Part shown: in pieces, positions 7,883 to 43,889 of the stretch
Layout: every line of letters starts with the position of its first letter
Numbering within the stretch: the stretch's first letter is position 1
Assembly: GCA_021780155.1 (NCBI GenBank)
Contig: JAJXZH010000011.1
Location: 846-64,845 of the forward strand
Length of the DNA: 64,000 nt
DNA from: a bacterium
Lineage (GTDB): Bacteria; Patescibacteriota; Minisyncoccia; UBA6257; JAGOQP01
Direction: 5' to 3'
The notes under the pieces: model-generated
Databases searched by the model: none
The model's input: only the letters and a program-made list of their open reading frames with translations
What the model was told of the DNA's origin: nothing
Made by a program: the position numbers and the translations under genes

Positions 7883-8036
7883 AAAAATAAATGACTAATA
7901 AATAATTATTGGTAGATAGTATAACACAAAAAATAATCGGCAAGGGAAAACTAACTATAGATAATTACGAGTTATCTTTTTATCTTATCACGTCCCGCTA
8001 CCCATATTTTTGTAATTATTTCGTATTTTGTAGCCC

Positions 8037-9365
8037 TTACTCAAATTCAATCAATTCTTTTTTTGGAATAACTTCGCGATTTGTCGGAAGAGTAAAATAA
8101 AAAGTAGTCCCTCTGTTGATTTCGGACTCCACCCATATTCTTCCCCCGTGACGAGTAATGATATTTTTTGCTATGTAAAGTCCCATGCCGGTCCCATCGG
8201 GAGAAAATTTAACAACATTGTCGGCTCTGAAAAATTTGGTAAAAAGTTTGTCTATCTGATTTTGAGGAATGCCGACGCCGGTATCTTTAATGGAGATTTT
8301 TACGAACGGCTCATTGTTTTCTTTTTCGGCAGAAACGGTAACTTCTCCGTTTTCAACGTTATATTTTATAGCATTGTCCAAAAGATTGGATAACACCATA
8401 TTCAATTTCTGCTGATCCACAAAAACATCGATTGACGGCTCTTGCGGTTTGGCAAAATAAAGTTTTATTCCATATTGTTTGGCAATAGTATTGGTTTGAG
8501 CCAAAAATTCTTCCAAATAAGATATGACATTTACCTGCTCAAATTGATATCCAAATCTTCCTTCTTCTATTTTTGAGACGTCCAAAAGGTCGTTGACGGT
8601 TTTGAGCATTTTTTTTGCCGCCGCAAAACCGGTGGTGACAAGTTCTTTTTGATCGGGAGCAAGTTGGCTGCTATTTAATCCCTCCAAAGCCCAGTTTATT
8701 GCGGTAAGTGGAGTTCTTAATTGATGAGCGGCAACAGTTATAAATTCGGTTTTTGATTTCAAAAGCTCCATCTCTCTGGTCCTGTTGGTTATCAATTTAA
8801 CAAATCCGGTGTTATTTCCTTCTCTATCAAAAATTCTATCGGTTACCACTCTCAAATCAAGTTCTGGAGCATCAAAAGAAACGTCAATTACTTGAGGATA
8901 AACACCGGGGTCGGAATGTTTTATCACCGCCGGCGCCAGAGAAGAAAAAACGACTTGCGCTAAGATTTTTAATTTTGGATCGTTGGCCATCGCTGCCGAC
9001 AATTTTATTCCGACAATATCTTCTTTATTTATAGAAAATATTTCTTGTGCCGCCGGATTAAAAGTAGTCACCTCAAAGTCGTTGCTATAGGCCAAAACTC
9101 CTATATTAAGATGCTCTACAATGCTTGAAACTTGGCCCGTCTCCGCCTTTAAGCGGACATTGATTTTAGAAAGCCTAAAGCTTGAAAAAATCATCAAAAA
9201 TAAAATAAGTGCCAATCCTCCAACAACAATCAATGCTATGCCTGATGGCAAATAAATAAAACTAATAACAAGAATAATAATTAAAATCGGCGCCAAGTAA
9301 AAAACAGGCCGAAACTCCGGCTGCATTAAATATTGAAAAAATTTTGAGCGCTTCTTGTCAATCAT
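8037..9365 (-). CDS. membrane-bound sensor histidine kinase
   Basis: Two N-terminal TM segments. H-box AAHQLRTPLTAI. N, G1 and G2 boxes (NAIKYN, DTGVGIP, GTGMGLYIAK). Confidence 0.85.
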   Translation of the reverse strand: MIDKKRSKFFQYLMQPEFRPVFYLAPILIIILVISFIYLPSGIALIVVGGLALILFLMIFSSFRLSKINVRLKAETGQVSSIVEHLNIGVLAYSNDFEVTTFNPAAQEIFSINKEDIVGIKLSAAMANDPKLKILAQVVFSSLAPAVIKHSDPGVYPQVIDVSFDAPELDLRVVTDRIFDREGNNTGFVKLITNRTREMELLKSKTEFITVAAHQLRTPLTAINWALEGLNSSQLAPDQKELVTTGFAAAKKMLKTVNDLLDVSKIEEGRFGYQFEQVNVISYLEEFLAQTNTIAKQYGIKLYFAKPQEPSIDVFVDQQKLNMVLSNLLDNAIKYNVENGEVTVSAEKENNEPFVKISIKDTGVGIPQNQIDKLFTKFFRADNVVKFSPDGTGMGLYIAKNIITRHGGRIWVESEINRGTTFYFTLPTNREVIPKKELIEFE

Positions 9366-9371
9366 TACTCA

Positions 9372-10604
9372 TTAATCTAAATTAAAAACATACAACTGAC
9401 CATCTAATCTATTTATAAAATAAATTTTGCCGTTCAATTCTTTTATTTTGGAAATGTCTAAATTTGTATTAGGTGCATTAAATAAAGTAGATACATCAAA
9501 ACTTTGCAAATCGATTTGATAAAGACCGTCATTAAAGTAAGCCCCCCTCATCAGATAATCATCGGGCAAAACGAGATCAGAGCCTTTGTTATTCAAAAAA
9601 GACAGGGCGCAATAAGCATATTTGGAATTGTAAGAAAAAGAACATTTCTCCGGAACAGTGCTTAAAACAATATCCGCCAATTTAGTCCCAGATTTATTTG
9701 TTAATGACACGTTATAATTTTTGGAATCGGCTGAAATAAATTCCATAGCATAATCAAATGGATAAGAAAATATTGCCCCAATTCCTTGACCTTGCCCAAA
9801 AAGATTGACTGTTTTTTTGTTTAAATCCAAGTACCATATTTGACCGGAATAATTAAAAGATTGTTTTGGCATTATAAAAATTTTATTCGCGTCTGGCCAT
9901 AGAATATTCGCATCCAAAATGTTTAAAGAAGATAGCAGAGTCACTTGATTTTTTGTGTTCGTCAAATTAATTGAATAAATATTTGCCGTTCCGCCGGAAT
10001 ATTTAAGAATAGCTAATTTTTTACCATCCGGGGAAAAATCAAAAGAGCTAACTCCCGAGCTTAATTCTTTCCAAACGCCAATACTTGAATCAAATAAAGC
10101 CAAGCTTCCGGAATCAAATTGAACAACAATTTCTTTGCCATCAATACTTTGGACTAATTTTAACGGCACTCCATAATTAGAAGCTGAAATAATTTTTTCT
10201 TGAAGAGGCCCCAAAATTTCAATCACCTCTCCTTTATTATTCAAATAAAAAACTCTTGGCAATACCTGGGAAGATGATGAAGTGGAGGTAGAGGTAGAAG
10301 TTGAAGAATAAATCCAATAATCAACTATCGTGTCATTATTGGTTAATAAAGATAATTTTTGCTTTTGTTGGTCATAAATTGACTGATCTTGAGTATTAGA
10401 ATTTGAAGTCGCAGAATTTGAATAAGAAGAATTATTTGATGAATAGTTATTACTGGAACTAGATGATGATATCGGCAAACTTCCCGATTGATTACTTTGA
10501 TTTGGGCTTGCGACAAATGATGATTTTTTGTAACCAAAATAAACCCCTACCCCTATAGCAATGATTATCAGAACAATTATCAAAACTAAAATTGTTTTTT
10601 TCAT
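9372..10604 (-). CDS. membrane-anchored hypothetical with Ser/Asn-rich linker and a beta-rich extracellular domain
   Basis: N-terminal TM. Long low-complexity S/N/T stretch. C-terminal part has alternating hydrophobic repeats (WD/propeller-like). No motif recognised. Confidence 0.35.
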   Translation of the reverse strand: MKKTILVLIIVLIIIAIGVGVYFGYKKSSFVASPNQSNQSGSLPISSSSSSNNYSSNNSSYSNSATSNSNTQDQSIYDQQKQKLSLLTNNDTIVDYWIYSSTSTSTSTSSSSQVLPRVFYLNNKGEVIEILGPLQEKIISASNYGVPLKLVQSIDGKEIVVQFDSGSLALFDSSIGVWKELSSGVSSFDFSPDGKKLAILKYSGGTANIYSINLTNTKNQVTLLSSLNILDANILWPDANKIFIMPKQSFNYSGQIWYLDLNKKTVNLFGQGQGIGAIFSYPFDYAMEFISADSKNYNVSLTNKSGTKLADIVLSTVPEKCSFSYNSKYAYCALSFLNNKGSDLVLPDDYLMRGAYFNDGLYQIDLQSFDVSTLFNAPNTNLDISKIKELNGKIYFINRLDGQLYVFNLD

Positions 10605-10620
10605 CTGTTATTTTTTATAA

Positions 10621-11622
10621 TTACCATTGAGCATGTATATGAGCCCCGCTTTTCCAATTACCTCCATCAAAAACAGAGCTGCAACTGTCATAAAACGTCC
10701 CACTTATCTCGCATTTTGCAAAAGATGCTCCATTTTGTTTCAAGGTTTTAACAAACTCATCCCAAACATTGGGGTCTTTTGAAGATGAAACAACTATATC
10801 CATTGCTCTTCCTTGATAGTGATACGAATTAGTGGCGTGTTTTCCTCCGGTCAGACTTGTAACCATAAATTGGGGTGGAGTCGGGCTCACGCAGCCGGGC
10901 GCTTGAGGGGCCATCCCCGTACCCAAATCAACGGTCCCTTGAGAATATGTACCACAAACAATACTATCCAAAGTTTCTAACATATTAATACTCAGATTAA
11001 CACTTCCACTGGTTCCCCCTCTAACACAGTCACAGCTTGGACTGCAAACGAAAGGAAGAACCCCATTGCTTACATCATTAATGATTGATTTTGCATCGGT
11101 TCCTGAAGAACAATCGTGACTTTGAGAAAAAATTACTTCGCTTGGACTTTTTGATAAAATACTTGAAGCTATCTGAGATAAAAGACTTCTTTGCTCCGTT
11201 GACCCTCCGTTATTTGTTCCGCCACTGGTTTGCATAGGAGGAACAGGTTGAGATATAAGATTTAAGCTCACTAATTGGGGATTTATGGTATTTAAGATAA
11301 GATATGACCCGGCAAGCAACAAAAGACCCCAAATGGCACTCATTATCCTATCTTTGGCATCTCCCAAGGCCGATTCGTTACCTCCACTGGCAAGATATTC
11401 TATACCTCCATAAATAATCATAATTATTGCTAAAGTTCCGGAAATCCCTATTGCATAATTATAAAGCCCGGACACAAAAGAAGGAATCGATTGGGAATTT
11501 AAAAATGACGGATAATCAACATTTATAGTGCTTGTCGATTGAGCGAATACTGGCAAAAATAAAATAAATCCCAATCCAAAAATAATTGAAAATAAAACAA
11601 AATAATTATATTTTTTTTTCAT
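10621..11622 (-). CDS. VirB2/TrbC-like T4SS pilin domain fused to a C-terminal M15 (VanY-like) zinc peptidase domain
   Basis: Signal peptide. N-terminal region with two TM helices around a GG-N-ES loop (GGIEYLASGGNESALGDAK...AIWGLLLLAG), homologous to the six pilin paralogs at 36.4-38.8 kb. C-terminus has SYHYQGRAMD (the M15 SxHxxGxAxD motif) and a distal AHIH. Confidence 0.5.
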   Translation of the reverse strand: MKKKYNYFVLFSIIFGLGFILFLPVFAQSTSTINVDYPSFLNSQSIPSFVSGLYNYAIGISGTLAIIMIIYGGIEYLASGGNESALGDAKDRIMSAIWGLLLLAGSYLILNTINPQLVSLNLISQPVPPMQTSGGTNNGGSTEQRSLLSQIASSILSKSPSEVIFSQSHDCSSGTDAKSIINDVSNGVLPFVCSPSCDCVRGGTSGSVNLSINMLETLDSIVCGTYSQGTVDLGTGMAPQAPGCVSPTPPQFMVTSLTGGKHATNSYHYQGRAMDIVVSSSKDPNVWDEFVKTLKQNGASFAKCEISGTFYDSCSSVFDGGNWKSGAHIHAQW

Positions 11623-11628
11623 ATTATT

Positions 11629-12393
11629 TTATTGAATAGTAAAACTTATAGAACTCTGGGCCGACTCAATCGGATTATTTGCATTTTGAGCAGTTAGTCC
11701 GATATCTACAATCCCCGAGTTTATATTTTTTCCGAAATTAACGGACAAAGAAAATGGATCGTTTGCTATTCCTCCAAATTTTTTGTTTTCAACAGTCCAT
11801 GTCGGAACGATATCATATAATAAATTGGCATTAAAAAAGAACGGAGCAGAAGACAAGCTAATCATTGAATTGGCATTAATAATATTGCTAAAATTTTTAT
11901 TAAAAATTACTACTTCCGGATTGACTATCGGGATAGTAATATAGTTATCAACAAAAGAAACACTTCCATCTGACGGATTTTCAACCTCCGAAGAAATCCT
12001 AACACTCAAATTGTCCGAAGCGATCCATTTGTTAATAGGAAAAGAAATCGATTTTAAACCCTGACCCTGGTCATAATATTGATTATTGACATACCACTTG
12101 ACCAACCGATTGGAAAGGTCGAGCACTTTACCAAGATTGGTTTTATCTTGACCAATTAATTCGAAAGAAATATTAACTCTTGATCCCTTGCTGGGCAAAA
12201 TTTTCCCCTGATACCATTGAGGAGCAAAACTGCTGGCATTCCAAGAAACCATAAATTGTGGGTCGGCAGCAAAAACACTCGTTGGTAAAAACAACTGTGC
12301 AAGAATAACTAAAAATACAGAAATGACCGAGTATTTTATAAAACGAGTTATCATCTGTTTTATTATATCAAATAAGACAATAAATATAAACAA
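11629..12393 (-). CDS. N-terminally anchored extracytoplasmic protein (VirB8/PrgL-position protein, hypothetical)
   Basis: One N-terminal TM, then about 220 aa of soluble domain. Sits between VirB4 and the hydrolase, as VirB8-like proteins do in Gram-positive T4SS loci. No motif recognised. Confidence 0.3.
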   Translation of the reverse strand: MFIFIVLFDIIKQMITRFIKYSVISVFLVILAQLFLPTSVFAADPQFMVSWNASSFAPQWYQGKILPSKGSRVNISFELIGQDKTNLGKVLDLSNRLVKWYVNNQYYDQGQGLKSISFPINKWIASDNLSVRISSEVENPSDGSVSFVDNYITIPIVNPEVVIFNKNFSNIINANSMISLSSAPFFFNANLLYDIVPTWTVENKKFGGIANDPFSLSVNFGKNINSGIVDIGLTAQNANNPIESAQSSISFTIQ

Positions 12394-12404
12394 CTTTCAA
12401 AAAA

Positions 12405-12953
12405 TCATCTTGCTATTTTCTTTGAATTCATAGCCTTGGATGCTATGCCAAATGTTTTGTTAAAAGATTCGGGACTATTTGTGCTCCAGATAGTTAAAAT
12501 AGCAGCCACAGTAGTTATCGGCAACCAATCTATCCCGGGAATAAGTTCTACCGCTTGAGCAATGACATTTTTTCCAACACTGTTTACGCCTTTTATAAAA
12601 AGCCAGGCAATAATAACGGGCGCAAAAACAAATCTTGTTACCCATATCCCATCAAGAATATCCGAAATAATAGAAAGACCCATATAAAATATAATTTCAA
12701 TCAGATCAAATCTGGGACCGGACGATGCCGACGATACATCTTGACTATCTTCGTCTTTTTCTTCATCTGATATTTCGTCATCATCTTCGGACTCATCTTC
12801 GTCATCACTCTCATCACCTGAAACATCTTCTTCATCTTCCGAACGCTCATTTTCATCATCATTTAGATCTTCTTCGTATTGAGAATCGGATCCTTCCAAA
12901 AAATCGTCGCCGGAAGTATTATCTTCATTTTGATTTTCTTTTTCTTCATCCAT
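12405..12953 (-). CDS. membrane protein with poly-acidic N-terminal tail
   Basis: The first ~85 aa are almost entirely D/E/S (EDEEDVSGDESDDEDESEDDDE). Two TM helices follow. Confidence 0.35.
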   Translation of the reverse strand: MDEEKENQNEDNTSGDDFLEGSDSQYEEDLNDDENERSEDEEDVSGDESDDEDESEDDDEISDEEKDEDSQDVSSASSGPRFDLIEIIFYMGLSIISDILDGIWVTRFVFAPVIIAWLFIKGVNSVGKNVIAQAVELIPGIDWLPITTVAAILTIWSTNSPESFNKTFGIASKAMNSKKIAR

Positions 12954-16084: not shown

Positions 16085-17299
16085 TCATTTTCTCATCGTC
16101 AAATTACTCAAATCAACCATACCACCACCAATATCATTATTTTTGTTTTCTACGGATGATTTGGCTGACGGCTGATTAAATGACGTAATTGGTGTTGAAG
16201 TTTTTGAGTTATCGGGAACATTGCTTGCGACATCCGTCTTAAAATTATTATCCAAAGAAGTTTTAAAGTTGCTTATATGAACCGTCTTAACCGGTTCTTC
16301 TTCGTATTTTTTGACCACCACCGGAATTTTTTGAATCGGTTGATCGGATGATAGAGGCTTTATTTGAGAGGGCATTTCTATCTTTGCTGATGAAACAAAA
16401 TTTTGTGTTTTTGCTGTCCCAAATGATTTCATATCCGAGCCAAAAAAACCTCCAAAAGAAGACGGAGCAAAATTTTTAATCGTCTGAGATTGAGCGATGC
16501 TTTGAGATTCTTCTTTTTTATGAAGAATAACCGGTCCCTCAGGAATTGTCGGCTTTGAAGCGGTTGGTTGGGATACGTTTGATTTTGAACCGACAGATAA
16601 TTGACCAAGGTTGACCTCTTGATTTATTTGAGGCTTTGGAGAAATGGCTCCGGTTTCGGCTTGAAAAGTTTTTTGACTTTGATTTGTTTGACTAAACGAA
16701 GTATCCGCAGTCGCAAGTCTGACAACATTCATATTGGCAAAAGAAGCACCTCTGGGAAGTTGAGCCGACTGATTAGCTTGAAGATTGTCCAAAGATATTG
16801 GCGCTGATTCTTTTGGTTTTTGAGAAGTAATATCGCCTTCAATTTTCAGCTTAACGGGCTCGGTTGAAAGAGATGATTTTAAATCTACAATTTCCGGATT
16901 TTTTTCTTTTAAAACTACTTGAGAAGAAACCTGGGTCGGCTCAATGATTTCTGATTCTTTTATAACTCCAATTTTTGATTTTATATAATTTTCTTCAATC
17001 TCTTTTTTAAAAGATTCAAATATCTTTTTATCCACCTGATGATATATCTCCAATGCCAATCTTGGATCTATCTGGAGGGCGTCTCTTATCTCTTTATACA
17101 AATCTTCTGAATTTATAATCCCAAGCAATACATAAAGACAAAGTTCAGATAATTTTTTTGATTTGATATCGGACAAATGATTGTCTCTTGCTATTGAATC
17201 TATAGCTTCATTGCTAAGAGGAGAAAAAACCACATCCCTTAATGTATCAGGTAGTGCGTTCCATCTTTCTCCAATTATTTTTTTTGAAATTGATATCAT
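16085..17299 (-). CDS. hypothetical cytoplasmic protein with ~100-aa folded N-terminal domain and long S/Q/K-rich disordered tail
   Basis: No TM, no motif, and low-complexity composition. It sits inside the T4SS-like cluster. Confidence 0.3.
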   Translation of the reverse strand: MISISKKIIGERWNALPDTLRDVVFSPLSNEAIDSIARDNHLSDIKSKKLSELCLYVLLGIINSEDLYKEIRDALQIDPRLALEIYHQVDKKIFESFKKEIEENYIKSKIGVIKESEIIEPTQVSSQVVLKEKNPEIVDLKSSLSTEPVKLKIEGDITSQKPKESAPISLDNLQANQSAQLPRGASFANMNVVRLATADTSFSQTNQSQKTFQAETGAISPKPQINQEVNLGQLSVGSKSNVSQPTASKPTIPEGPVILHKKEESQSIAQSQTIKNFAPSSFGGFFGSDMKSFGTAKTQNFVSSAKIEMPSQIKPLSSDQPIQKIPVVVKKYEEEPVKTVHISNFKTSLDNNFKTDVASNVPDNSKTSTPITSFNQPSAKSSVENKNNDIGGGMVDLSNLTMRK

Positions 17300-17321
17300 A
17301 TAAAAAATACAATATAAAATA

Positions 17322-19541
17322 CTATTTTTTAACTTCTGATTTAGCAGATGACAAAGTTTCAGTATTAGTTGTCATTCCTCCCATTATTGACCCCATACCT
17401 CTTCCGAGATTATCCGCCAACTGCTTCATCTTTGGATTTTTGGAAGATTTTAAAATTTCGACAGCCTTATCGTATTGTCCACCACTCAAAGCAGCTTCGA
17501 ATTCAGCATCAAGATTTTTAGTTGTCTTTTCCATTGTCGTCTTTTTTTCTTTAACAGTCTGAGCAAATCCTGCGGGACGATTTATTTCCCTGACAACTTC
17601 TTGCTCTTCGTCTATCTGACCTAAATTACCTCTAGCGTTCTGAAGTAATTGACTGAACATTTTAGCCATATTTTCATCATTAAGCTTTGACGCAGTAGCA
17701 CCTATTCCTCTGCCCTGTCTACCTCCCATGTTAGCCAAATAATTTTCACGAAACCTATCAGAAGCATCCTTATTTAATCCAAGAATCTCCGGCTTGCCAC
17801 TGAAAGCTTCATTCCCTACATTGCCAGCCATCGCTCTCCAATCTTCGGGACTAAATTTTCCATAAAACTCTTCGGCTTTCTTTTGATATTCCTCATAATT
17901 TCCTTCTTTCAAAGATTTCATCATTTCAGTGCTCATACCAAGACTTTTTTCTAAATTGTTAGCAATATTAGTTCTCCCTCCTTGTCTCAAATAATCAGCC
18001 TGTCTTGTAATTTCATCTATTCCGCCAAAGGCAGCTATGGTATCGCCATCCAATCTTCCTTGTTGCTGCATCGCCATTAAAAGACCGAGTTGTTCTTCTC
18101 TGGGCAATCCGGCATATGCTTCTCTTTGCCTATTTTTGTCCCATTTTTTGTATTCTTCAACAAAAGTTTCCGGCGGTTTTCCAAAAACCGGTTCGGCTTT
18201 CCTTTTTTCTGCAGAAGCTCCAGCATTTATTAACCCTTTACCAGCACGCCCAACCGTCTCTCTAGCAACCCAACCAACGCCAGGCACTTTTATTTTTCCA
18301 GCAAATGAAGACATTCTCGCTCCGATTTTTTCTACTCCAATTCCTCTCCCAATTGCAGCAGCAGCGGCACCAGATCCTCTTTTAGCATATTGAGTGGTTT
18401 TCGATCTTGCCCATCCACTCATTTTCCCGGATACTTTACTTGATTGTTTTAAAATAAAACTGCTTCCCGCCATTCCCAAACTCTGAGAAATTTTAAGACC
18501 TCCTATAAGTATCGCTCCGGACATTAAAGTTAACATAATAGCATCAAATCCATGAACCCCACCCGATTGACTGGCGGAATTAGTAAGTCCGCTAAATCCC
18601 AAATTGGATGATTGGCTCATCATTATCATTGACAGTTTTACAAACAAAAGCATAAGCGGAGCGAAAAACACCCATTTTAGAAAATGCGTCCACCAGTCAC
18701 GCCAAAATCTGTATGCAGATGGAAATATCCACAAAAGCCACGCTCCTGGAGATAAAATTAGTAAAAATGATATATAAAAATATCTAAGCAAAAACATAAG
18801 CGCTAAAACCAATAAAACAAAAGAGACGAAAACTGCGGCCAATACTTGAATAAAAATATTTATAATGTCTCCTATGTTTTGAATATCTCCTTGCGTACTT
18901 TTTGAACTCACGTCCATTACAGTAGAGGTTGTCGTCAAGATTGTTCCTATCTCACTATTTTGGACAATCATCATACTGGTTTTGTCGCTGACTTGAACAG
19001 GATCATTGTGATCTATATTTTGTTTTAGTGTTATATCTTGCAAAAAAGAATTGGAAAAGACATCCGAAACTTTTATAATCGCTCCGCCGATCATTAAGCT
19101 AAAATTTACAATCAAAGCGGCAACCACCAATTTCCACAAAATCGATTGAGCTTGATAACTTTTAATTCTCAAGATGGTGGCAATCGCTATGACAATTATT
19201 CCCAAAACAAAACCTAAATTAGCCAAATCTCGAAAAGTAGTCCACCCCACATAAACAAAACTGTGTGAATCAAAAATTTGAGTGGTAATTTTTTGAGTGA
19301 GTGTCAGAGAGGCGGACAATATGGTAGCGGCAAGTTTCATCATTCCCGCCACTAAAATGTCCTTTATCGTAAGCAATACTTTCAAAAAAATATCCGAAAT
19401 GGCTCCGGTAGCAAAAGATCCTATATTCAACAAACTAGGTAATGCGTATGCTCTCTCATGAAATAAAGAAAATGCCAAAAACAACACCAAACAAAAAATA
19501 ATGACTTTGCTTTGATTTGTTAATATCTTATTTCTTTTCAT
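17322..19541 (-). CDS. VirB6/TrbL-like polytopic membrane protein with long hydrophilic C-terminal extension
   Basis: Signal/TM followed by at least 6 TM helices in the first ~330 aa. A ~400-aa Gly/charged-rich tail follows. Position upstream of the PrgI-like and VirB4 genes matches PrgH/VirB6. Confidence 0.45.
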   Translation of the reverse strand: MKRNKILTNQSKVIIFCLVLFLAFSLFHERAYALPSLLNIGSFATGAISDIFLKVLLTIKDILVAGMMKLAATILSASLTLTQKITTQIFDSHSFVYVGWTTFRDLANLGFVLGIIVIAIATILRIKSYQAQSILWKLVVAALIVNFSLMIGGAIIKVSDVFSNSFLQDITLKQNIDHNDPVQVSDKTSMMIVQNSEIGTILTTTSTVMDVSSKSTQGDIQNIGDIINIFIQVLAAVFVSFVLLVLALMFLLRYFYISFLLILSPGAWLLWIFPSAYRFWRDWWTHFLKWVFFAPLMLLFVKLSMIMMSQSSNLGFSGLTNSASQSGGVHGFDAIMLTLMSGAILIGGLKISQSLGMAGSSFILKQSSKVSGKMSGWARSKTTQYAKRGSGAAAAAIGRGIGVEKIGARMSSFAGKIKVPGVGWVARETVGRAGKGLINAGASAEKRKAEPVFGKPPETFVEEYKKWDKNRQREAYAGLPREEQLGLLMAMQQQGRLDGDTIAAFGGIDEITRQADYLRQGGRTNIANNLEKSLGMSTEMMKSLKEGNYEEYQKKAEEFYGKFSPEDWRAMAGNVGNEAFSGKPEILGLNKDASDRFRENYLANMGGRQGRGIGATASKLNDENMAKMFSQLLQNARGNLGQIDEEQEVVREINRPAGFAQTVKEKKTTMEKTTKNLDAEFEAALSGGQYDKAVEILKSSKNPKMKQLADNLGRGMGSIMGGMTTNTETLSSAKSEVKK

Positions 19542-34414: not shown

Positions 34415-34930
34415 TTATCGACGACTTAATTTAGTTTTAAATAATACTTTTGAATTCTCATCCAAATCAATAAATGTGTCAACTGATTCTTTTAATTTAG
34501 AAGAGGAACTTCTGCCAAAAGAGGCGCACTCAACCTGCTTACCCTCGCCCCATTTTAAATATTCAACCAATGGAATAAAATCTCCATCTCCGGTAATCAA
34601 AATCACCACATCCAAAGATTTTGCCATTCTGATTGCATCAACCGCCATCCCCACATCCCAGTCGGCTTTTTTAGCGCCTCCGGAAAAAACTTGAAGGTCT
34701 TTCATTCTCAATTCTATTCCACTTTTTTCCAAAGCCTCAAAAAAAGCGCCCTCTCCGGCGGAGATGTCGCTTTTAACCACGTATCCTATGGCGCGGATTA
34801 GCTGTCTTGGACCAACAACCAATTTTACAAGCTCGGAAAAGTTAACCCTTGAACCATAAAGATGCTTTGCCGAGTGATACAAATTTTGAACATCCACGAA
34901 AATTCCGACTCGTTGGTCTTTGTAGCGCAT
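34415..34930 (-). CDS. NYN-domain (LabA/YacP-like PIN-fold) putative ribonuclease
   Basis: VGIFVDVQNL...DVGMAVDAI...VVILITGDGDFIPLV carries the NYN acidic residues. Confidence 0.65.
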   Translation of the reverse strand: MRYKDQRVGIFVDVQNLYHSAKHLYGSRVNFSELVKLVVGPRQLIRAIGYVVKSDISAGEGAFFEALEKSGIELRMKDLQVFSGGAKKADWDVGMAVDAIRMAKSLDVVILITGDGDFIPLVEYLKWGEGKQVECASFGRSSSSKLKESVDTFIDLDENSKVLFKTKLSRR

Positions 34931-35362: not shown

Positions 35363-36277
35363 ATGAATGAAGTTGAAAAATACATAAAAGAATATCTTGA
35401 TTATCTGGAAGTGGAAAAAAATCGCTCACCAAAAACGATAGAAAATTATCGTCGATATTTGAATTTTTTTGTCAAAATTTCCGAAATAAAAACCATTAAA
35501 GACGTTAACTCGGAAAACATCCGCCAATTCCGCCTCAATTTAGCAAGAAGGGCCGGTGAAGAAGGGGATTTTCTCAAAAAAACAACTCAAAGTTATTACG
35601 TGATAGCCATAAGAAATTTTTTGAAATATCTCATAAAAAATTCAATCAAAACTTATACTTCTCCCGAACAGATAGAACTACCAAAAATTTCCCAAAGGCA
35701 AATCGAGATTATTGAATATCCGGAATTGGAGAGATTTTTAAACAGTCCGTCGGGAGATTCCTTAAGAATTTTGAGGGATAAGGCGATTTTGGAAACCCTC
35801 TTTTCGACCGGACTTCGTATTTCCGAACTTTGTTCACTCTCAAGATATCAGGATTTTGAAAGAGGTGAAATAACTGTCAGAGGCAAGGGAGGAAAATTAA
35901 GAGTGGTATTTTTTTCCGACGACGCCAAACAAACAATCGCAAAATATCTGGAAAAAAGAAGCGACGCGGAAGAGGCACTTTTTGTAAGTTTGAGTAAATC
36001 AAAAAATCCAAAAGTCATAGGAAGAATTATTCCCCGCGCAATTCAGAGATTGGTCAGATATTATGCTAAAAAATCCGGAATATTGGGCAAGGTAACTCCT
36101 CATCAGTTAAGACATCAATTTGCCACAGATCTTTTAATGAACGGCGCAGACATTCGTTCGGTTCAAGCGCTTTTGGGGCACGCCAACATTGCCACTACCC
36201 AAATCTATACCCACGTCACCAATAAAGAGCTCAAAGAAATCCACAAATCATTCCATGGCAAAAGAAGAAGCAATTGA
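35363..36277 (+). CDS. tyrosine site-specific recombinase (XerC/XerD-type integrase)
   Basis: SAM-like N-terminal domain. Catalytic R...HxxR...Y region (LRHQFATDL...HANIATTQIYTHV). Confidence 0.85.
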   Translation: MNEVEKYIKEYLDYLEVEKNRSPKTIENYRRYLNFFVKISEIKTIKDVNSENIRQFRLNLARRAGEEGDFLKKTTQSYYVIAIRNFLKYLIKNSIKTYTSPEQIELPKISQRQIEIIEYPELERFLNSPSGDSLRILRDKAILETLFSTGLRISELCSLSRYQDFERGEITVRGKGGKLRVVFFSDDAKQTIAKYLEKRSDAEEALFVSLSKSKNPKVIGRIIPRAIQRLVRYYAKKSGILGKVTPHQLRHQFATDLLMNGADIRSVQALLGHANIATTQIYTHVTNKELKEIHKSFHGKRRSN

Positions 36278-36320: not shown

Positions 36321-36408
36321 GCCGAGGTGGCGAAATTGGCTATACGCACTAGCTTTAGGAGCTAGCGCTCGAAAGAGCATGCGGGTTCAACTCCCGCCCT
36401 CGGCACCA
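36321..36408 (+). tRNA. tRNA-Leu (anticodon UAG) with encoded CCA
   Basis: Hand-folded cloverleaf. Acceptor GCCGAGG/CCTCGGC. Anticodon stem CTAGC/GCTAG with loop TTTAGGA. 15-nt variable arm. T-arm GCGGG-TTCAACT-CCCGC. Discriminator A followed by CCA. Confidence 0.85.
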
Positions 36409-36462: not shown

Positions 36463-36831
36463 CTATTGAGTAAGTCCGGAAGACAATGAACTCTGAACCA
36501 AGCTTACCACTCCATAAGAGAGCAAGGCAACGACTATGCCAACGATGGCATAAATCAGTTCCTGTTTGGCTTTTTTGGTTGTTTCCGTGTCCCCCTTGCT
36601 GGTAATGAAATGAAAAGCTGACAAAAGAATAAAAAGAACCGCGACAATAAAGATTATGTAATAGAACCATTTAACTACGGTAACTAACATTCCAACCCAA
36701 CCACTTATAGTAGTAGTATTCCCATAAGTAGGACCGAGATTAATAGGGGTTGTGGGCTGAGCGAAAACCGATACTCCTACCGCAAACAACAGAATCACCA
36801 ATCCAATTGACGCAAATATTTTTTTAACCAT
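36463..36831 (-). CDS. VirB2/TrbC-like T4SS pilin-family protein (paralog A)
   Basis: Signal peptide, variable region, then TM1-(SKGDTETTKKAKQEL)-TM2 hairpin (YAIVGIVVALLSYG), as in the other paralogs. Confidence 0.5.
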   Translation of the reverse strand: MVKKIFASIGLVILLFAVGVSVFAQPTTPINLGPTYGNTTTISGWVGMLVTVVKWFYYIIFIVAVLFILLSAFHFITSKGDTETTKKAKQELIYAIVGIVVALLSYGVVSLVQSSLSSGLTQ

Positions 36832-36903
36832 GATTTTTTTTATCGTTACGACCTTTACTTTTTAATATTTTTAATAATAGCATAAACATTTAATAATCTC
36901 AAA

Positions 36904-37296
36904 TCAATTCGCACCTCTGCTTTGCAAAAACTGAGTAATTGTCCAAGAAACACCGGAAGCAATCAGAGCTACGACTATAGCAATAATCGCATATTTTAAT
37001 TGAGACTTAGCCGTTTCTGCCTTCTTTTCATTTGCCCCTCCTTGGAGAAAATTGTAGGCCGCCAAAAGAATAAATAAAACGGCAACTACAAAAAATATAA
37101 CATAAATCCACTTAACTATACTAATCAATATATACCAGAATTGAGTAACGCCAGTTATCGGAGAAGAAATTTCGCTGTTTCCAAAAGGGTTTATATATCC
37201 TTCATTTACTGCGAAAACTTCAAAAATGCCGGTTGTCAAAAATATGGTTATAAATAAAAATGGCAATATCTTTAATAATTTTTTTTGTTTAAACAT
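36904..37296 (-). CDS. VirB2/TrbC-like T4SS pilin-family protein (paralog B)
   Basis: VKWIYVIFFVVAVLFILLAAYNFLQGGANEKKAETAKSQLKYAIIAIVVALIASG is the conserved core. Confidence 0.55.
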   Translation of the reverse strand: MFKQKKLLKILPFLFITIFLTTGIFEVFAVNEGYINPFGNSEISSPITGVTQFWYILISIVKWIYVIFFVVAVLFILLAAYNFLQGGANEKKAETAKSQLKYAIIAIVVALIASGVSWTITQFLQSRGAN

Positions 37297-37311
37297 AAAT
37301 TTAAATTTATT

Positions 37312-37698
37312 TTAATAAACTCCTCCGCTACCAAGAAATTGAGCGATAATAAATGAAAGACCCGAAGCAATAAGTGCGACAACTATAGAAATAGCGGCAT
37401 ATTTTAGCTGTCCTTTGGCAATCTCTATCTTTTTTTCGTTTGTTCCTCCTTGAATAAAATTATAAGCCGCCATCAGAATAAAAATAACTGCCACCACAAA
37501 AAATGCTCTATAAATCCAAATAACAATATTTCTTATAATATCAAACACGCCGTTCACGCTATTGACCGGAGATGCCGTATTTCCTGTGTTAAAAGGAGCA
37601 ATATTAACTCCGGAGGTATCCGGCGATCCGGCGGCAAGAACGATTATCGGCAACATCATCATAATTGCAGCCAATGATAAAAAAAACTTTTTTTTCAT
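37312..37698 (-). CDS. VirB2/TrbC-like T4SS pilin-family protein (paralog C)
   Basis: Core AVIFILMAAYNFIQGGTNEKKIEIAKGQLKYAAISIVVALIASG is nearly identical to paralog B. Confidence 0.55.
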   Translation of the reverse strand: MKKKFFLSLAAIMMMLPIIVLAAGSPDTSGVNIAPFNTGNTASPVNSVNGVFDIIRNIVIWIYRAFFVVAVIFILMAAYNFIQGGTNEKKIEIAKGQLKYAAISIVVALIASGLSFIIAQFLGSGGVY

Positions 37699-37712
37699 AT
37701 TTTTGATATTAA

Positions 37713-38030
37713 TTATTTATTACCCAAAAATGTATTTATTATTGTAGCAACTCCCGAAGCGGTTAGAGCGATAACCAAAGCAATAACGGCATATTTCAAC
37801 TGAGCTTTAGCGGTTTCTATTTTTTTGGGATTATCTCCTCCCTGAAGATAATTAAATGCCGCCAAAAGAATAAATCCGACAACAACAATATAAAAAGCTT
37901 CATACATATAAGTGACGGCTTTTTGCATCAAGGCAATAATATCATCAGCGGTATTTATTTGAGCAAATGCCACCATCGGAAATCCGGAAATAATCGCCGC
38001 CGCTATAATTGATTTTGTTTTATTTTTCAT
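37713..38030 (-). CDS. VirB2/TrbC-like T4SS pilin-family protein (paralog D)
   Basis: Core FILLAAFNYLQGGDNPKKIETAKAQLKYAVIALVIALTASG. Confidence 0.55.
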   Translation of the reverse strand: MKNKTKSIIAAAIISGFPMVAFAQINTADDIIALMQKAVTYMYEAFYIVVVGFILLAAFNYLQGGDNPKKIETAKAQLKYAVIALVIALTASGVATIINTFLGNK

Positions 38031-38050
38031 ATTTAAATATTTTTATTAAA

Positions 38051-38386
38051 TTAAGCGCCAATGAAATTTTTAACTACCGCCGCTATTCCTTTTGCCGCAA
38101 GAACTACGGCCATTCCGACAATCGTATAAGTAATCGTTTTCTTCCCTTGAGCAAATTTGCTTTCATTGCCGGCGGCGCCAAGCATTTGAAACGCTCCGAC
38201 AAGCAACATTATAACAAAAACGGGAGAAGCAAGTTCAACAATAAATGTCGCAATTTTATCAACCAAATCGGGCACGGTAGTGACAGACAACGGATTGGGC
38301 AGAGAAACTCCACCGTTATCGGCGGCACTGGCAACTATCGGTATCCCCGAAACAAAGATAAATAGCGAATAGAAGATTTTTTTCAT
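38051..38386 (-). CDS. VirB2/TrbC-like T4SS pilin-family protein (paralog E, divergent)
   Basis: Same architecture, with a divergent loop AAGNESKFAQGKKTITYTIVGMAVVLAAKG. Confidence 0.45.
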   Translation of the reverse strand: MKKIFYSLFIFVSGIPIVASAADNGGVSLPNPLSVTTVPDLVDKIATFIVELASPVFVIMLLVGAFQMLGAAGNESKFAQGKKTITYTIVGMAVVLAAKGIAAVVKNFIGA

Positions 38387-38410
38387 ATTTTATTTATTAT
38401 AGACATTATA

Positions 38411-38782
38411 CTATTGTGTCGGCAAATTTAAAAACTTCAAAACGGTATTAACCAAAATCCAGGCGCCAAAAGTCAAAACTATGCCGATTGCCGCCGCAGT
38501 TATTTTTTGCCTTCCTTTTTTAAATTTTCCTTCATCACCCGCCGAAATCGCCATTTCAATTCCTCCCCAAACGATAACAATGATTGCCACCGGTGTAACG
38601 ATGTCGGTTAAAACGAAAGTAACTACACCCTGAACTGTTTTTACAAAATCGGAATAGGTGCATGGATTTTGGCCGTTCCCTCCACAATTAACCAAAGCGG
38701 CAAAAGATTGCATGGCATTCATAAAAAACACCAGAGAAAAAAATAAAATTCCGTAACCGTATTTTCCGAATTTTTTTATCAT
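38411..38782 (-). CDS. VirB2/TrbC-like T4SS pilin-family protein (paralog F, divergent, Cys-containing)
   Basis: Same architecture. The loop GGIEMAISAGDEGKFKKGRQK resembles the pilin domain of the M15 fusion protein at 10621-11622. Confidence 0.45.
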   Translation of the reverse strand: MIKKFGKYGYGILFFSLVFFMNAMQSFAALVNCGGNGQNPCTYSDFVKTVQGVVTFVLTDIVTPVAIIVIVWGGIEMAISAGDEGKFKKGRQKITAAAIGIVLTFGAWILVNTVLKFLNLPTQ

Positions 38783-38840: not shown

Positions 38841-40166
38841 CTATTGTCCCAAATTTGACGATGGCTGATATAAATTATTCAATGCCGCCTGAGCCGCTTG
38901 AACCGATGCCTGAACATTCAATTTCCCGGATAAAATATCATTAACCATTCCCGTAAAAATGGAATCAATGGACTGAGGATCAATCTGGAACCAATCCTTG
39001 GTAGTTAAAAATTCTTTCAAAAATACACCGTTGTCTCCGCCAAGATTTTGTTGGATCAGCGAAAGTAGAACGGGAAGTTTTCCTGTCGCCGTAAGATAAG
39101 AAGAGCTTATCGATGGCGTCATTGTCAGATACCTTATAAAACTCCAAGCGACATACGGATTTTGGGTTTGTTTGGAAACTGCCAATCCCCAATAACTCGG
39201 CCAATTGGCTATTTGCGAAGCGTTGGCATTTGTAAGCTGAGGCAAAGGAGCAACACCAAGATTGATGTAGGCATTTCTGTTTTTTATATTTTTGATTGAT
39301 TGATAATAATCCAAAATCATTGCCGTTTGTCCGGCGGCAAAAGAAGAAACTGAGTTATCAAAACTTTCATTCCAAGTGTAATAAGGACTGATGGGATTTG
39401 AAAATTGAGTATAAAATTGAACCGCTTTGTTAAAAGGGTCGTCCAAAATAACTCCATCGCCGGAGGGATTATTTATAGGAGAACCGGACTGCATCGCCAA
39501 AACGCTCAAAATATCCGGAACATTGTTTATATTGTAAGCCGAACCCAATGCGGCGGCAGAAAGAGATATTTTTTTATTTTGATCCATCTCCGTTATCTTG
39601 GCGACATCGGCAATGAAGTCGTCCCAAGTTGCCGGCGGAAAAACAATTCCTTTGGAATTAAAAATATCTTTGTTGTAAATAAGAGCCAAGGCGTCCATAG
39701 ACAGAGGTGAGGCAAAAATATTTCCCGATAAAACAAAATCTTTTGAAACTACCGACGGGAAAGATTGACTAAAAACCTGAGGCGTGACCAACAAAGACGG
39801 AGCGGGATAAAGTTTGTTCCAATTGTTATAAACCCAAAGATTGTTGACCATAAATATATCCGGCCCCTGATTGGCAGCAAGAGCGTCAATCAGTTTTTGT
39901 TGGTAGGCAACAGGATCATCAAATTTGGTGTAATTTATTTTTACATTTTTATAAACGCCCTGATACAATTTGATAATATCGTTATAAACGGAATATTCGT
40001 CTCCCACTCCCCACATCTGCAAAGTAACACTCCCGGTTGGAAAGTTTGGATCCGAATTGGTGGTCTTTTTTATTCCGGGAATTATTCCCATAAGTCCCAA
40101 AATAAAAACAATGGCGACCAACGCTATAATACCGACAACAATTACCTGATTTTTGCTAAAATTCAT
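38841..40166 (-). CDS. ABC transporter extracellular solute-binding protein (family 1, sugar-type), putative
   Basis: N-terminal TM/lipoprotein-like anchor. 441 aa. Composition and length fit SBP_bac_1. No metal or ATP motifs. Confidence 0.5.
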   Translation of the reverse strand: MNFSKNQVIVVGIIALVAIVFILGLMGIIPGIKKTTNSDPNFPTGSVTLQMWGVGDEYSVYNDIIKLYQGVYKNVKINYTKFDDPVAYQQKLIDALAANQGPDIFMVNNLWVYNNWNKLYPAPSLLVTPQVFSQSFPSVVSKDFVLSGNIFASPLSMDALALIYNKDIFNSKGIVFPPATWDDFIADVAKITEMDQNKKISLSAAALGSAYNINNVPDILSVLAMQSGSPINNPSGDGVILDDPFNKAVQFYTQFSNPISPYYTWNESFDNSVSSFAAGQTAMILDYYQSIKNIKNRNAYINLGVAPLPQLTNANASQIANWPSYWGLAVSKQTQNPYVAWSFIRYLTMTPSISSSYLTATGKLPVLLSLIQQNLGGDNGVFLKEFLTTKDWFQIDPQSIDSIFTGMVNDILSGKLNVQASVQAAQAALNNLYQPSSNLGQ

Positions 40167-43265: not shown

Positions 43266-43337
43266 GCCCTCGTAGTGAAACGGATATCACGTTAGGCTTC
43301 GAACCTAAAATTCCGGGTTCAAATCCTGGCGAGGGCA
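43266..43337 (+). tRNA. tRNA-Arg (anticodon UCG), no encoded CCA
   Basis: Hand-folded. Acceptor GCCCTCG/CGAGGGC. Anticodon stem TTAGG/CCTAA with loop CTTCGAA. T-arm CCGGG-TTCAAAT-CCTGG. Confidence 0.75.
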
Positions 43338-43515
43338 CAAAAGAAAAGATTTGTTAAAGAATAAGTCACCGAGCCGATTTTGGAAGATAAAACAAAAAAG
43401 AACGGGAAAATTCTAATTTTATCAAACACCACTTCCGATCAATAAGCGGGTCAAATTAATTTTTTATCAATAATCTTGAAAAATAACATTGCTGGTGGCA
43501 CAATAAACCCATTCC

Positions 43516-43532
43516 GCCCGTAGCTCAGCTGG
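43516..43532 (+). other. truncated tRNA 5' fragment (degenerate copy of the tRNA-Lys 5' end)
   Basis: GCCCGTAGCTCAGCTGG matches the acceptor 5' strand and D-arm of the adjacent tRNA-Lys (CCCCCCATAGCTCAACTGG). It breaks off after the D-loop. Confidence 0.4.
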
Positions 43533-43544
43533 CCCCGTATAAAT

Positions 43545-43617
43545 CCCCCCATAGCTCAACTGGTAGAGCAGTTCCCTCTTAAGGAAAAGGTTCTAGGTTC
43601 GACCCCTAGTGGGGGGA
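43545..43617 (+). tRNA. tRNA-Lys (anticodon CUU), no encoded CCA
   Basis: Acceptor CCCCCCA/TGGGGGG. D-arm GCTC-AACTGGTA-GAGC. Anticodon loop CTCTTAA. T-arm CTAGG-TTCGACC-CCTAG. Confidence 0.8.
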
Positions 43618-43638
43618 CTATTAATGGATTTAACGGAA

Positions 43639-43663
43639 TTTTTGTTTTGAGCGGGTGAGCGGA
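43639..43663. repeat. 25-bp direct repeat copy duplicating the 3' end of tRNA-Gly plus flanking sequence
   Basis: TTTTTGTTTTGAGCGGGTGAGCGGA is identical to 43807-43831. The second copy overlaps the 3' end of tRNA-Gly. Confidence 0.6.
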
Positions 43664-43784
43664 CGCGTTGCTATCGTCCCGCTCGTCCCCGACCCCCAAA
43701 TAAGAAACCTTCTGGTTTCTTACGTCGCTTCGCTCCTATTTTCCAACACGGGGGCTCGCAGTCAGATTCCTGCATCACCCAAAA

Positions 43785-43812
43785 TAAAAAATATCCCTAC
43801 GGATATTTTTTG
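43785..43812. terminator. bidirectional rho-independent terminator
   Basis: AAAAAATATCCCTACGGATATTTTTT has a stem ATATCC/GGATAT with an A-run and a T-run on either side. Confidence 0.5.
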
Positions 43813-43817
43813 TTTTG

Positions 43818-43889
43818 AGCGGGTGAGCGGAATCGGACCGCCGTCTCAGCCTTGGCAAGGCCGTGTAATAGCCACTATACGACACCCGC
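43818..43889 (-). tRNA. tRNA-Gly (anticodon GCC)
   Basis: Minus-strand fold. Acceptor GCGGGTG/CACCCGC. Anticodon stem CGGCC/GGCTG (one G-U) with loop TTGCCAA. T-arm GGCGG-TCCGATT-CCGCT. Discriminator U, as is usual for tRNA-Gly. C at position 55 is atypical. Confidence 0.7.

Follow-up and report, generated by a model that had tools for sequence, protein, structure and literature searches.

We studied a window of 64,000 nt (contig JAJXZH010000011.1 of the assembly GCA_021780155.1 from an ultra-small bacterium of the Patescibacteria; by window we mean this whole stretch) and, within it, a minus-strand gene that encodes a VirB2-like pilin module fused to a peptidase-type domain, located among genes of a type IV secretion system (T4SS). 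The window's list of open reading frames (ORFs) contains it as an ATG-started ORF at exactly 10621..11622 (-), which codes for 333 aa plus stop. The upstream ORF ends at 11629 and the downstream ORF starts at 10604, i.e., the gaps are 6 nt and 16 nt, respectively, and the gene therefore lies inside a minus-strand operon. The protein is composed of a signal peptide, a VirB2-like T4SS_pilin hairpin, a flexible linker of 27 residues (Pro/Gly/Ser/Thr) and a Cys-rich C-terminal domain of 190 aa (C-domain in the following); eight Cys are found in its C-terminal part. Respective coordinates are provided in Table 1. An identical protein is present in public collections (P0001; proteins and loci other than the window are given by P and L numbers). 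Homologs stem from metagenomes of Patescibacteria/Candidate Phyla Radiation (CPR), namely Jorgensenbacteria, Yanofskybacteria, Adlerbacteria, Paceibacterota and the 'Patescibacteria group'. The GC content of the window is about 36% and housekeeping genes are spread along its whole length. A gene-fusion artefact or a miscalled ORF was considered and ruled out, given that the same architecture is found in hundreds of independent assemblies.

A preliminary description of the locus, made from the sequence alone, had proposed a pilin module joined to a zinc-peptidase-type domain with an SxHxxGxAxD and a later HxH motif, a kinship of the N-terminus with six pilin paralogs of the window, and membership in a T4SS gene cluster. 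ORF, PF18895 match and translation agree with the two-part architecture. The N-terminus and all six paralogs belong to PF18895. A VirB4-like ATPase (377 bits, CD1110 family) is encoded three genes upstream and PrgI/VirB3 is present as well.

The N-terminal part matches the Pfam model T4SS_pilin (PF18895) at aa 44-110 with 30.4 bits (cut-off 26.6) and shows a weak match to the TrbC/VirB2 model. The first 27 residues resemble a Sec signal peptide. In the AlphaFold2 model, this signal-peptide-like start is followed by two long helices (46-78 and 83-113), which is the layout of a pilin. The six small paralogs of the array are likely pilus subunits. They show 15-29% identity to the N-terminus of the fusion and, like it, consist of a signal peptide and two helices joined by a GGNE..K..AK loop. 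Apart from the fusion and this array, no other copy of pilin or C-domain was found in the window. Helix 2 of the fusion closes with L-N-T-I-N-P, of which L110, T112, I113, N114 and P115 are invariant in full-length homologs. The LNTINP motif is found in every pilin-plus-cargo protein recovered and is missing from the six array pilins. Among fusions with different cargos, the pilin module shows 56-64% identity, compared to about 25% for the array pilins. This far better conservation fits a contact of the fusion's pilin module with conserved parts of the machine.

The preliminary description had labelled the C-domain M15/VanY. This label had to be given up. None of the respective Pfam or NCBIfam M15 models is significant for the C-domain (Pfam VanY, Peptidase_M15_2, _3 and _4; NCBIfam MepK), an outcome which the description itself had named as speaking against its label; from its proposed HMM searches, T4SS_pilin alone is found above cut-off. 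The best M15 scores are 11.5-12.6 bits for Peptidase_M15_2 (cut-off 27), 13.8 for M15_4 (cut-off 25) and 12 for MepK (cut-off 185), with best M15 E-values of 0.019-0.035 among 16 relatives. The HH_signal model (PF01085) scores 13.6-14.6 bits and thus does not pass its cut-off of 22.1 either, while 8/16 relatives are weakly matched (best E-value 0.0011). HH_signal, Peptidase_M15_2, M15_4 and MepK all fall on the same 20-50 residues with 11-15 bits. Furthermore, the second motif of the C-domain is HxH and not the ExxH of the VanY/M15B subtype; in contrast, a true pilin-VanY fusion (P0053) has 'EPWHW'. That is, the C-domain is not of the VanY type and does not belong to any curated M15 family. 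No SLT, lysozyme-like or CHAP/NlpC domain from Pfam was found in the fusion protein.

A search of the PDB with a profile of 16 sequences (hmmsearch) yields the N-domains of Sonic, Indian and Desert hedgehog with E-values of 2e-4 to 2e-3, followed by M15C L-Ala-D-Glu endopeptidases at about 0.1; the profile matches to solved Hedgehog members cover only 40-56 residues. When aligned via hhalign to the N-domain of Sonic hedgehog (Shh; N-domain ShhN), the C-domain stretch 'TSLTGGKHATNSYHYQGRAMDIVV' is matched with a probability of 90% (E-value 1.5e-6), such that H262, H268 and D275 are paired with GHH...H...D of Shh. The central part of the ShhN sequence used here is confirmed by the HMMER output of the PDB search. 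A profile of 126 sequences provides a longer alignment to Shh (29.9 bits), in which 'C-E' of the family is paired with 'Y-Y-E' of Shh.

Foldseek was uninformative for the full-length model, i.e., the hairpin caused spurious helical matches and only LdcB surfaced (E-value 3.4). The C-domain was therefore predicted again on its own (AlphaFold; predicted local distance difference test (pLDDT) 87.8, predicted template modelling score (pTM) 0.84). The first 24 PDB matches of this model are all Hedgehog N-domains with a Foldseek probability of 0.90-1.0 (1.0 for most) and E-values from 4e-3 to 0.14. Most of these alignments comprise 83-84 columns with a root-mean-square deviation (rmsd) of 2.5-2.9 Å and 20-25% identity, while a few are longer with an rmsd of 7.5-9 Å. 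Next in rank are Ply500, LysECD7, the RB49 L-Ala-D-Glu peptidase, LdcB, the S. albus DD-peptidase 1LBU and VanXYc/VanY. M15 lysins and DD-peptidases hence rank behind Hedgehog. Fold neighbours from the viral library BFVD are 'Peptidase M15A C-terminal', MepK and tail proteins that combine the gp5 OB-fold with a peptidase. Because profile search, hhalign and fold search agree and the signature of the superfamily is conserved, the C-domain is better described as a divergent Hedgehog/DD-peptidase (LAS) domain, whose active site is apparently intact as judged from sequence. By profile and predicted fold, its closest relatives are the Hedgehog N-domain and M15A-type DD-peptidases.

The superfamily corresponds to Hedgehog/DD-peptidase in ECOD and to the clan Peptidase_MD in Pfam. 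Hedgehog/DD-peptidases are defined by an H-X6-D plus an H-X-H motif (PMC6027127). The fusion shows both, namely H268-x6-D275 and H328-x-H330. We assessed conservation among 126 divergent relatives, selected from clusters with an identity of at most 50%. H268, G271, D275 and H328 are found in 100% of them, H262 in 99% and H330 in 94% (mostly Asp otherwise). At position 305, which is aligned to E177 of Shh, 80% show Glu and 15% Asp. Given such conservation, the motifs of the C-domain are no chance matches. In addition, six Cys are 89-100% conserved and probably form three disulfides, in keeping with what is expected for an extracytoplasmic protein.

Next, we consider family size and variants. 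When 1.84 billion cluster representatives were scanned exhaustively with the C-domain profile (HMMER), 1123 proteins were identified at E<=1e-3 (counted as clusters at 50% identity), of which 237 reached E<=1e-10 and 64 reached E<=1e-30. The architecture, regarded as unusual in the preliminary description, is so with respect to classical T4SSs, but common in Patescibacteria given these 1123 clusters. The locus search with the single fusion protein found L001 as the only close ortholog, besides two loci with pilins alone, a word-indexed search with the C-domain alignment found 5 proteins, and a search seeded with long variants provided proteins from Yanofskybacteria and Paceibacterota, with no named Saccharibacteria protein among its results. 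In 139/156 C-domain proteins, the pilin module is found N-terminal of the C-domain, and the remaining ones are mostly short fragments. The pilin fusion is thus the native, almost obligatory state of the C-domain.

Variants of the fusion show large N-terminal extensions (P0130, P0080, P0113) or inserts of 200-250 residues that separate pilin and peptidase (P0016, P0019, P0024), and two proteins combine Hedgehog/DD-peptidase and SLT lytic transglycosylase in one chain (P0073, P0139). Other cargo is likewise found on this 'YLILNTINPxL' pilin module, namely VanY alone (P0053), SLT alone (P0055), or one of several further Cys-rich or coiled-coil domains without family assignment. A cargo swap is found in L007 at the same operon position (8001-8858, P0017). 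Here, the pilin module is kept at 64% identity and VirB4 is 91% identical to that of the window, whereas the cargo is a different Cys-rich domain with the motifs GTDGAH...THSLGCKAD...HWD, for which no relation to the C-domain was found. For the swapped cargo of P0013, P0014, P0015, P0017 and P0042 (motifs GTExGH...VDLR...HWHV), hhalign reports a probability of 5% with respect to LAS, and no PDB match was found. Independent of that, about 10 members of ~550-640 aa (P0060, P0062, P0063, P0065, P0066, P0071, P0091, P0106, P0111, P0151) carry a second, partial tandem C-domain that covers the profile positions ~24-140, apparently without the HxH strand.

The fusion is the third gene downstream of the VirB4 ATPase of a VirB4-type T4SS. 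The gene order VirB6-like, g404, PrgI, TraC-N, VirB4, g182, g254, fusion, g410 is shared by the window with L001, L004, L005, L006 and L013, i.e., by six virB4-operon loci in total, with the identity of the fusion falling to about 35%. Homologs of g182 and g254, which have no assigned function, are found at the same position in L001, L004, L005, L006 and L007, and g410 is conserved in the same five loci. Besides the fusion, family scans found no VirB1, SLT, CHAP or other recognisable wall hydrolase in the operon of the window. Comparing the window with its closest relative L001, VirB4 is 98.8% identical and the fusion 79%; for the individual regions of the latter, the identity is 59% (signal peptide), 89% (pilin module), 63% (linker) and 85% (C-domain).

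Table 1. Features of the fusion gene, its operon and the pilin array (positions refer to the window; aa numbers to the fusion protein).
Feature	Position	Strand	Basis
Fusion gene, operon gene 8, 333 aa; pilin module + Hedgehog/DD-peptidase-type domain	10621..11622	-	ORF list; identical P0001
Putative signal peptide, aa 1-27	11542..11622	-	sequence MKKKYNYFVLFSIIFGLGFILFLPVFA, followed by QS; presumed cleavage after VFA; model helix 2-21
Mature N-terminus + VirB2-like pilin hairpin, aa 28-115	11278..11541	-	PF18895; model helices; invariant LNTINP end
Flexible linker, aa 116-142, QLVSLNLISQPVPPMQTSGGTNNGGST	11197..11277	-	translation; pLDDT below 50 at residues 120-138
Cys-rich catalytic-type C-domain, aa 143-333; Hedgehog/DD-peptidase (LAS) core ~aa 250-333	10624..11196	-	model, Foldseek, profile search, hhalign
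H262, aligns with second His of Shh 'GHH'	10837..10839	-	alignments; 99% conserved
SYHYQGRAMD, H268-x6-D275, first two predicted zinc ligands	10798..10827	-	translation; aligned to Shh
C304-E305, E305 candidate general base (Shh E177 position)	10708..10713	-	translation; 126-sequence profile
H328-I-H330, HxH motif, third predicted zinc ligand + catalytic His	10633..10641	-	translation; conservation; motif definition PMC6027127
Operon gene 1, VirB6-like, 739 aa		-	
Operon gene 2, g404, 404 aa		-	
Operon gene 3, PrgI/VirB3, 178 aa	15480-16016	-	called PrgI in syntenic loci
Operon gene 4, TraC-like VirB4 N-domain, 228 aa	14744-15430	-	PF26593 TraC-like in syntenic loci
Operon gene 5, VirB4-like T4SS ATPase, 585 aa	12969..14726	-	NF045971 CD1110-family 377 bits; P-loop_TraG E 3e-30
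Operon gene 6, g182, 182 aa, directly after virB4	12405-12953	-	syntenic
Operon gene 7, g254, 254 aa, between g182 and fusion	within 11629..12953	-	syntenic
Operon gene 9, g410, 410 aa, membrane-anchored, conserved	9372..10604	-	synteny, BLAST E 1e-9 to 1e-106
Operon gene 10, histidine kinase, 442 aa		-	
Six small T4SS_pilin paralogs in array, likely pilus subunits	36463..38782	-	PF18895 at 33.7-45.2 bits each

Some further observations concern the operon itself. Within 16085-19541 (-), the VirB6-like protein of 739 aa is 64% and the protein of 404 aa is 56% identical to the respective L001 protein, i.e., rates are very uneven within the operon. Two ORFs make up VirB4, one for a TraC-like N-domain (228 aa) and one for the ATPase (585 aa), and this split is conserved in all syntenic loci. 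The ~75 N-terminal residues of g182 are almost all Asp, Glu or Ser and are followed by hydrophobic helices, while g410 starts with an N-terminal transmembrane helix, followed by a long Ser/Asn-rich low-complexity stretch and a region with a weak WD40-like match; no family match was found for either protein. In L005 (12708-15209) and L006 (9709-12369), the T4SS operon, with the fusion as its last gene, is located beside dnaA-dnaN, rnpA and yidC, i.e., the replication origin, which agrees with the origin-proximal T4SS placement reported (PMC12102498).

Concerning the wider window, the flanks encode MetRS, a Mur ligase, RuvA, Fpg, KsgA, UvrD and PNPase, and these housekeeping genes rule out that the cluster originates from a mobile element or conjugative plasmid. 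A tyrosine recombinase gene (35363-36277, +) and a tRNA (36321-36405, +) abut the 3' end of the pilin array, with an NYN-domain gene (34415-34930) next to the recombinase. Since the pair of NYN and integrase recurs in L007, the recombinase is probably Xer-like and not a sign of a mobile element. The Rfam scan of the window found four tRNAs only, i.e., the one mentioned and a cluster of three at 43266-43889 (two on the plus strand, one on the minus strand). Furthermore, three loci that are unrelated to each other have an SBP_bac_1 gene immediately upstream of their T4SS pilin array, namely the window (38841-40166 (-), array at 36463-38782 (-)), L012 (5358-9527) and L010 (3058-7266). This suggests that the solute-binding protein (SBP) functionally belongs with the pilins.

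For T4SSs of diderms, the cell wall is opened by VirB1, and in monoderms, PrgK and TraG, which are membrane-anchored SLT+CHAP enzymes, take this role. With a confidence that stays a little short of even, we favour the reading that the fusion is a functional analogue of VirB1/PrgK/TraG, i.e., a membrane-anchored, dedicated peptidoglycan peptidase of the T4SS that would open the producer's own wall. The genes for a Mur ligase and a glutamate racemase in the window show that the producer has such a wall to cross. The proposed mechanism would run as follows. The fusion would be exported via Sec and its signal peptide cut off, such that the VirB2-like hairpin would reside in the cytoplasmic membrane with both ends outside. 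The external location of the C-domain we infer from the established topology of VirB2/TraA. The 27-residue linker would keep the disulfide-stabilised, 190-residue Hedgehog/DD-peptidase-type domain in the wall zone by the T4SS. Here, H268, D275 and H330 would bind Zn2+, E305 would activate water, and H262 and H328 would assist. The presumed substrate is the peptide part of peptidoglycan, and local cleavage of the producer's own peptide stems or cross-links would make room for the channel and a VirB2-type pilus. We favour this reading because of the conserved pilin module and the position in the virB4 operon. The recurring wall-hydrolase cargo on the same pilin module (VanY, SLT, peptidase + SLT) also counts for it. 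An own-wall peptidase would furthermore account for the scarcity of VirB1 reported near virB4 of Patescibacteria (PMC12102498).

Several points weigh against this interpretation. The Pfam models for M15 and HH_signal all stay below their cut-offs. With Foldseek, the E-values obtained are modest (4e-3), only ~83 residues superpose well and the TM-scores are low (0.28-0.45) because only the core aligns. Catalysis and metal binding by the C-domain are predictions from sequence and model, and, to our knowledge, Hedgehog keeps all of these residues without an agreed substrate. With regard to genomic context, the fusion heads a pilin array in L012 and L010, where the gene of an extracellular SBP immediately precedes it, and it is followed by another pilin-domain gene in L011, with a VirD4-like gene nearby. 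This context in L010, L011 and L012 as well as the cargo swap in L007 fit a pilus-borne, target-adapted role better.

Such a role is a serious possibility, if one in which we have limited confidence: the fusion may be a true minor or tip pilin that is built into a VirB2-type pilus together with the six array pilins and whose peptidase cuts the peptidoglycan of the host. With the C-terminus exposed at the surface or tip of the pilus, the epibiont might attach and insert its pilus or open a conduit. Both termini point outward in VirB2/TraA pili and F-pilin tolerates C-terminal additions, which is in line with this idea, as are the complete pilin layout above the Pfam cut-off and the heading of pilin arrays after the SBP gene in L012 and L010 (or the adjacent second pilin-domain gene in L011). 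Cargo is exchanged even between close relatives (L007 vs. window, at 91% VirB4 identity) and the fusion evolves faster than VirB4 (79% vs. 98.8% to L001), as is typical for host-interaction proteins. The N-terminal extensions of P0130, P0080 and P0113, large and extracellular, as well as phage tail-tip proteins with gp5 OB-fold and M15A peptidase among the structural neighbours point in the same direction. T4SS and pilins of Patescibacteria are moreover essential to epibiotic growth (PMC10633639). However, a domain of 190 aa is hard to pack into the helical filament of a VirB2-type pilus except at its end, the pilin module of the fusion is conserved while array pilins are hypervariable, and in six loci, including the window, the gene is located among core machine genes and away from the pilins. 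Localisation in the pilus, and the formation of a pilus by this T4SS, are hypothetical. The preliminary description had placed the wall-cutting activity directly in the subunit of the pilus or channel; an enzyme anchored in the membrane fits the data just as well. An extended version of the pilus idea seems possible but rather doubtful to us: the 'YLILNTINPxL' module could be a general display adaptor that puts interchangeable wall-degrading heads on the VirB2-type pilus, with the fusion as priming or tip pilin and the pilus as an armed drill for host peptidoglycan. The heads observed are Hedgehog/DD-peptidase, VanY, SLT, peptidase plus SLT and further Cys-rich domains. If this was true, cargo swapping would track the wall chemistry of the host, and the fusion would be the first enzyme-bearing conjugative-type pilin and explain why the T4SS is essential for epibiotic life.

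We consider it improbable that the fusion is a general wall-remodelling enzyme, unrelated to secretion, which acts in growth, division or peptidoglycan recycling and for which the hairpin of pilin ancestry is a mere anchor. Some members are indeed located away from virB4, e.g., the long variant P0130, which adjoins an SLT_2 gene in L009, and the weak matches include the LAS/M15 enzymes MepK and LdcB, i.e., housekeeping wall enzymes. But the virB4-operon position is kept across loci with fusion identities of 32-45%, or the gene is found inside pilin arrays, and the C-domain almost never occurs without the pilin module (139/156 with it, the rest mostly fragments). Even less do we expect a non-catalytic binding module that uses a Hedgehog-like zinc site as ligand or adhesin, e.g., for peptides of the host wall. 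While the closest relatives in sequence and fold are signalling domains and the hydrolase activity of the family is so far predicted only, not only the metal ligands are near-invariant but likewise the residues needed for catalysis alone (H262, E305 or Asp, H328). In addition, the presence of SLT in the same chain and the replacement of the domain by VanY or SLT in paralogous fusions argue for hydrolysis.

Patescibacteria, whose cells live attached to other microbes, account for a large part of the diversity of bacteria. In one species tested, the chromosomal T4SS and its pilins are essential for attached life (PMC10633639). The T4SS of Patescibacteria, its VirB2-like pilin arrays and its essentiality in S. 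epibionticum are already known (PMC10633639; PMC12102498; PMC12857230). Most Patescibacteria genomes with VirB2 have no VirB1 homologue, for which other hydrolases may substitute, and 'peptidase and lysozyme homologues' were mentioned near virB4 (PMC12102498). A Hedgehog/DD-peptidase domain beside virB4 of Patescibacteria is not new either, since SEML1_0007 next to virB4 already carries one (PMC10633639). In a non-exhaustive literature search, we found no published description of the covalent pilin-peptidase fusion, the size of its family or the pattern of interchangeable cargo. What appears to be new, as far as sequence and models indicate, are the anchor and the catalytic family of this putative wall hydrolase associated with a T4SS. 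A widespread, conserved fusion of a VirB2-like pilin with a Hedgehog/DD-peptidase-type domain would fill the VirB1 gap noted in surveys (PMC12102498) and may explain how a secretion machine or pilus passes the cell wall. It offers a mutable target, i.e., a domain that can be separated and four or five predicted catalytic residues, to study how the machine crosses the wall, and whose wall that is. Furthermore, the family would add a large bacterial branch to the Hedgehog/DD-peptidase superfamily, and it suggests that a conjugative-type pilin can act as carrier of enzymatic cargo.

Finally, we compare the fusion with known systems. Bacterial Hedgehog/DD-peptidases show the LAS arrangement of MEROPS type M15A, e.g., the Zn DD-carboxypeptidase 1LBU of Streptomyces albus. 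With these and the Hedgehog N-domain, the fusion shares H-x6-D plus H-x-H and the order of the core secondary-structure elements. To Shh, which provides the best profile and fold matches, the strings 'GxH....SxHYxGRAxD' and 'AHIH' are nearly identical. In contrast to Hedgehog, the fusion has an extra Cys-rich N-subdomain (aa 143-224), whose conserved Cys probably form three disulfides, and an insert of 20 residues that separates the strand with Glu from that with HxH; it stays below the HH_signal cut-off (14.6 vs. 22.1 bits), superposes well over only ~83 residues and is fused to a pilin. With the pilins of VirB2/TrbC/T4SS_pilin (PF18895), it has the signal peptide, two hydrophobic helices, short polar loop and VirB4 system in common, but differs by its 220-aa C-terminal extension, the invariant LNTINP and a conservation much higher than that of array pilins.

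Like VirB1, PrgK (pCF10) and TraG (pIP501), the fusion is encoded in a T4SS operon; these enzymes are extracytoplasmic, membrane-tethered in monoderms and presumed to open the wall locally, as would be the fusion. Its relatives P0073 and P0139 join peptidase and SLT and thereby resemble the peptidase-plus-glycosidase design of PrgK and TraG (PMC12102498). The differences are that the catalytic domain is of the LAS zinc-peptidase type and not SLT, lysozyme or CHAP, and that a VirB2-like two-helix pilin module instead of a single transmembrane helix forms the anchor. SEML1_0007 of Southlakia epibionticum ML1 (Saccharibacteria) is encoded directly downstream of virB4, is essential in transposon sequencing (Tn-seq) and ends with an ECOD 'Hedgehog/DD-peptidase' at residues 951-1105 (Table S2, PMC10633639). 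It has 1113 aa with no PF18895 match listed, and the comparison is based on the description in Table S2 only (PMC10633639). An analogy, and no more than that since carrier fold and assembly machine are unrelated, exists to the tail-associated M15A lysins of phages (gp5 OB-fold plus peptidase; MepK-like), where a fibre or needle subunit bears a LAS peptidase for local penetration of the wall.

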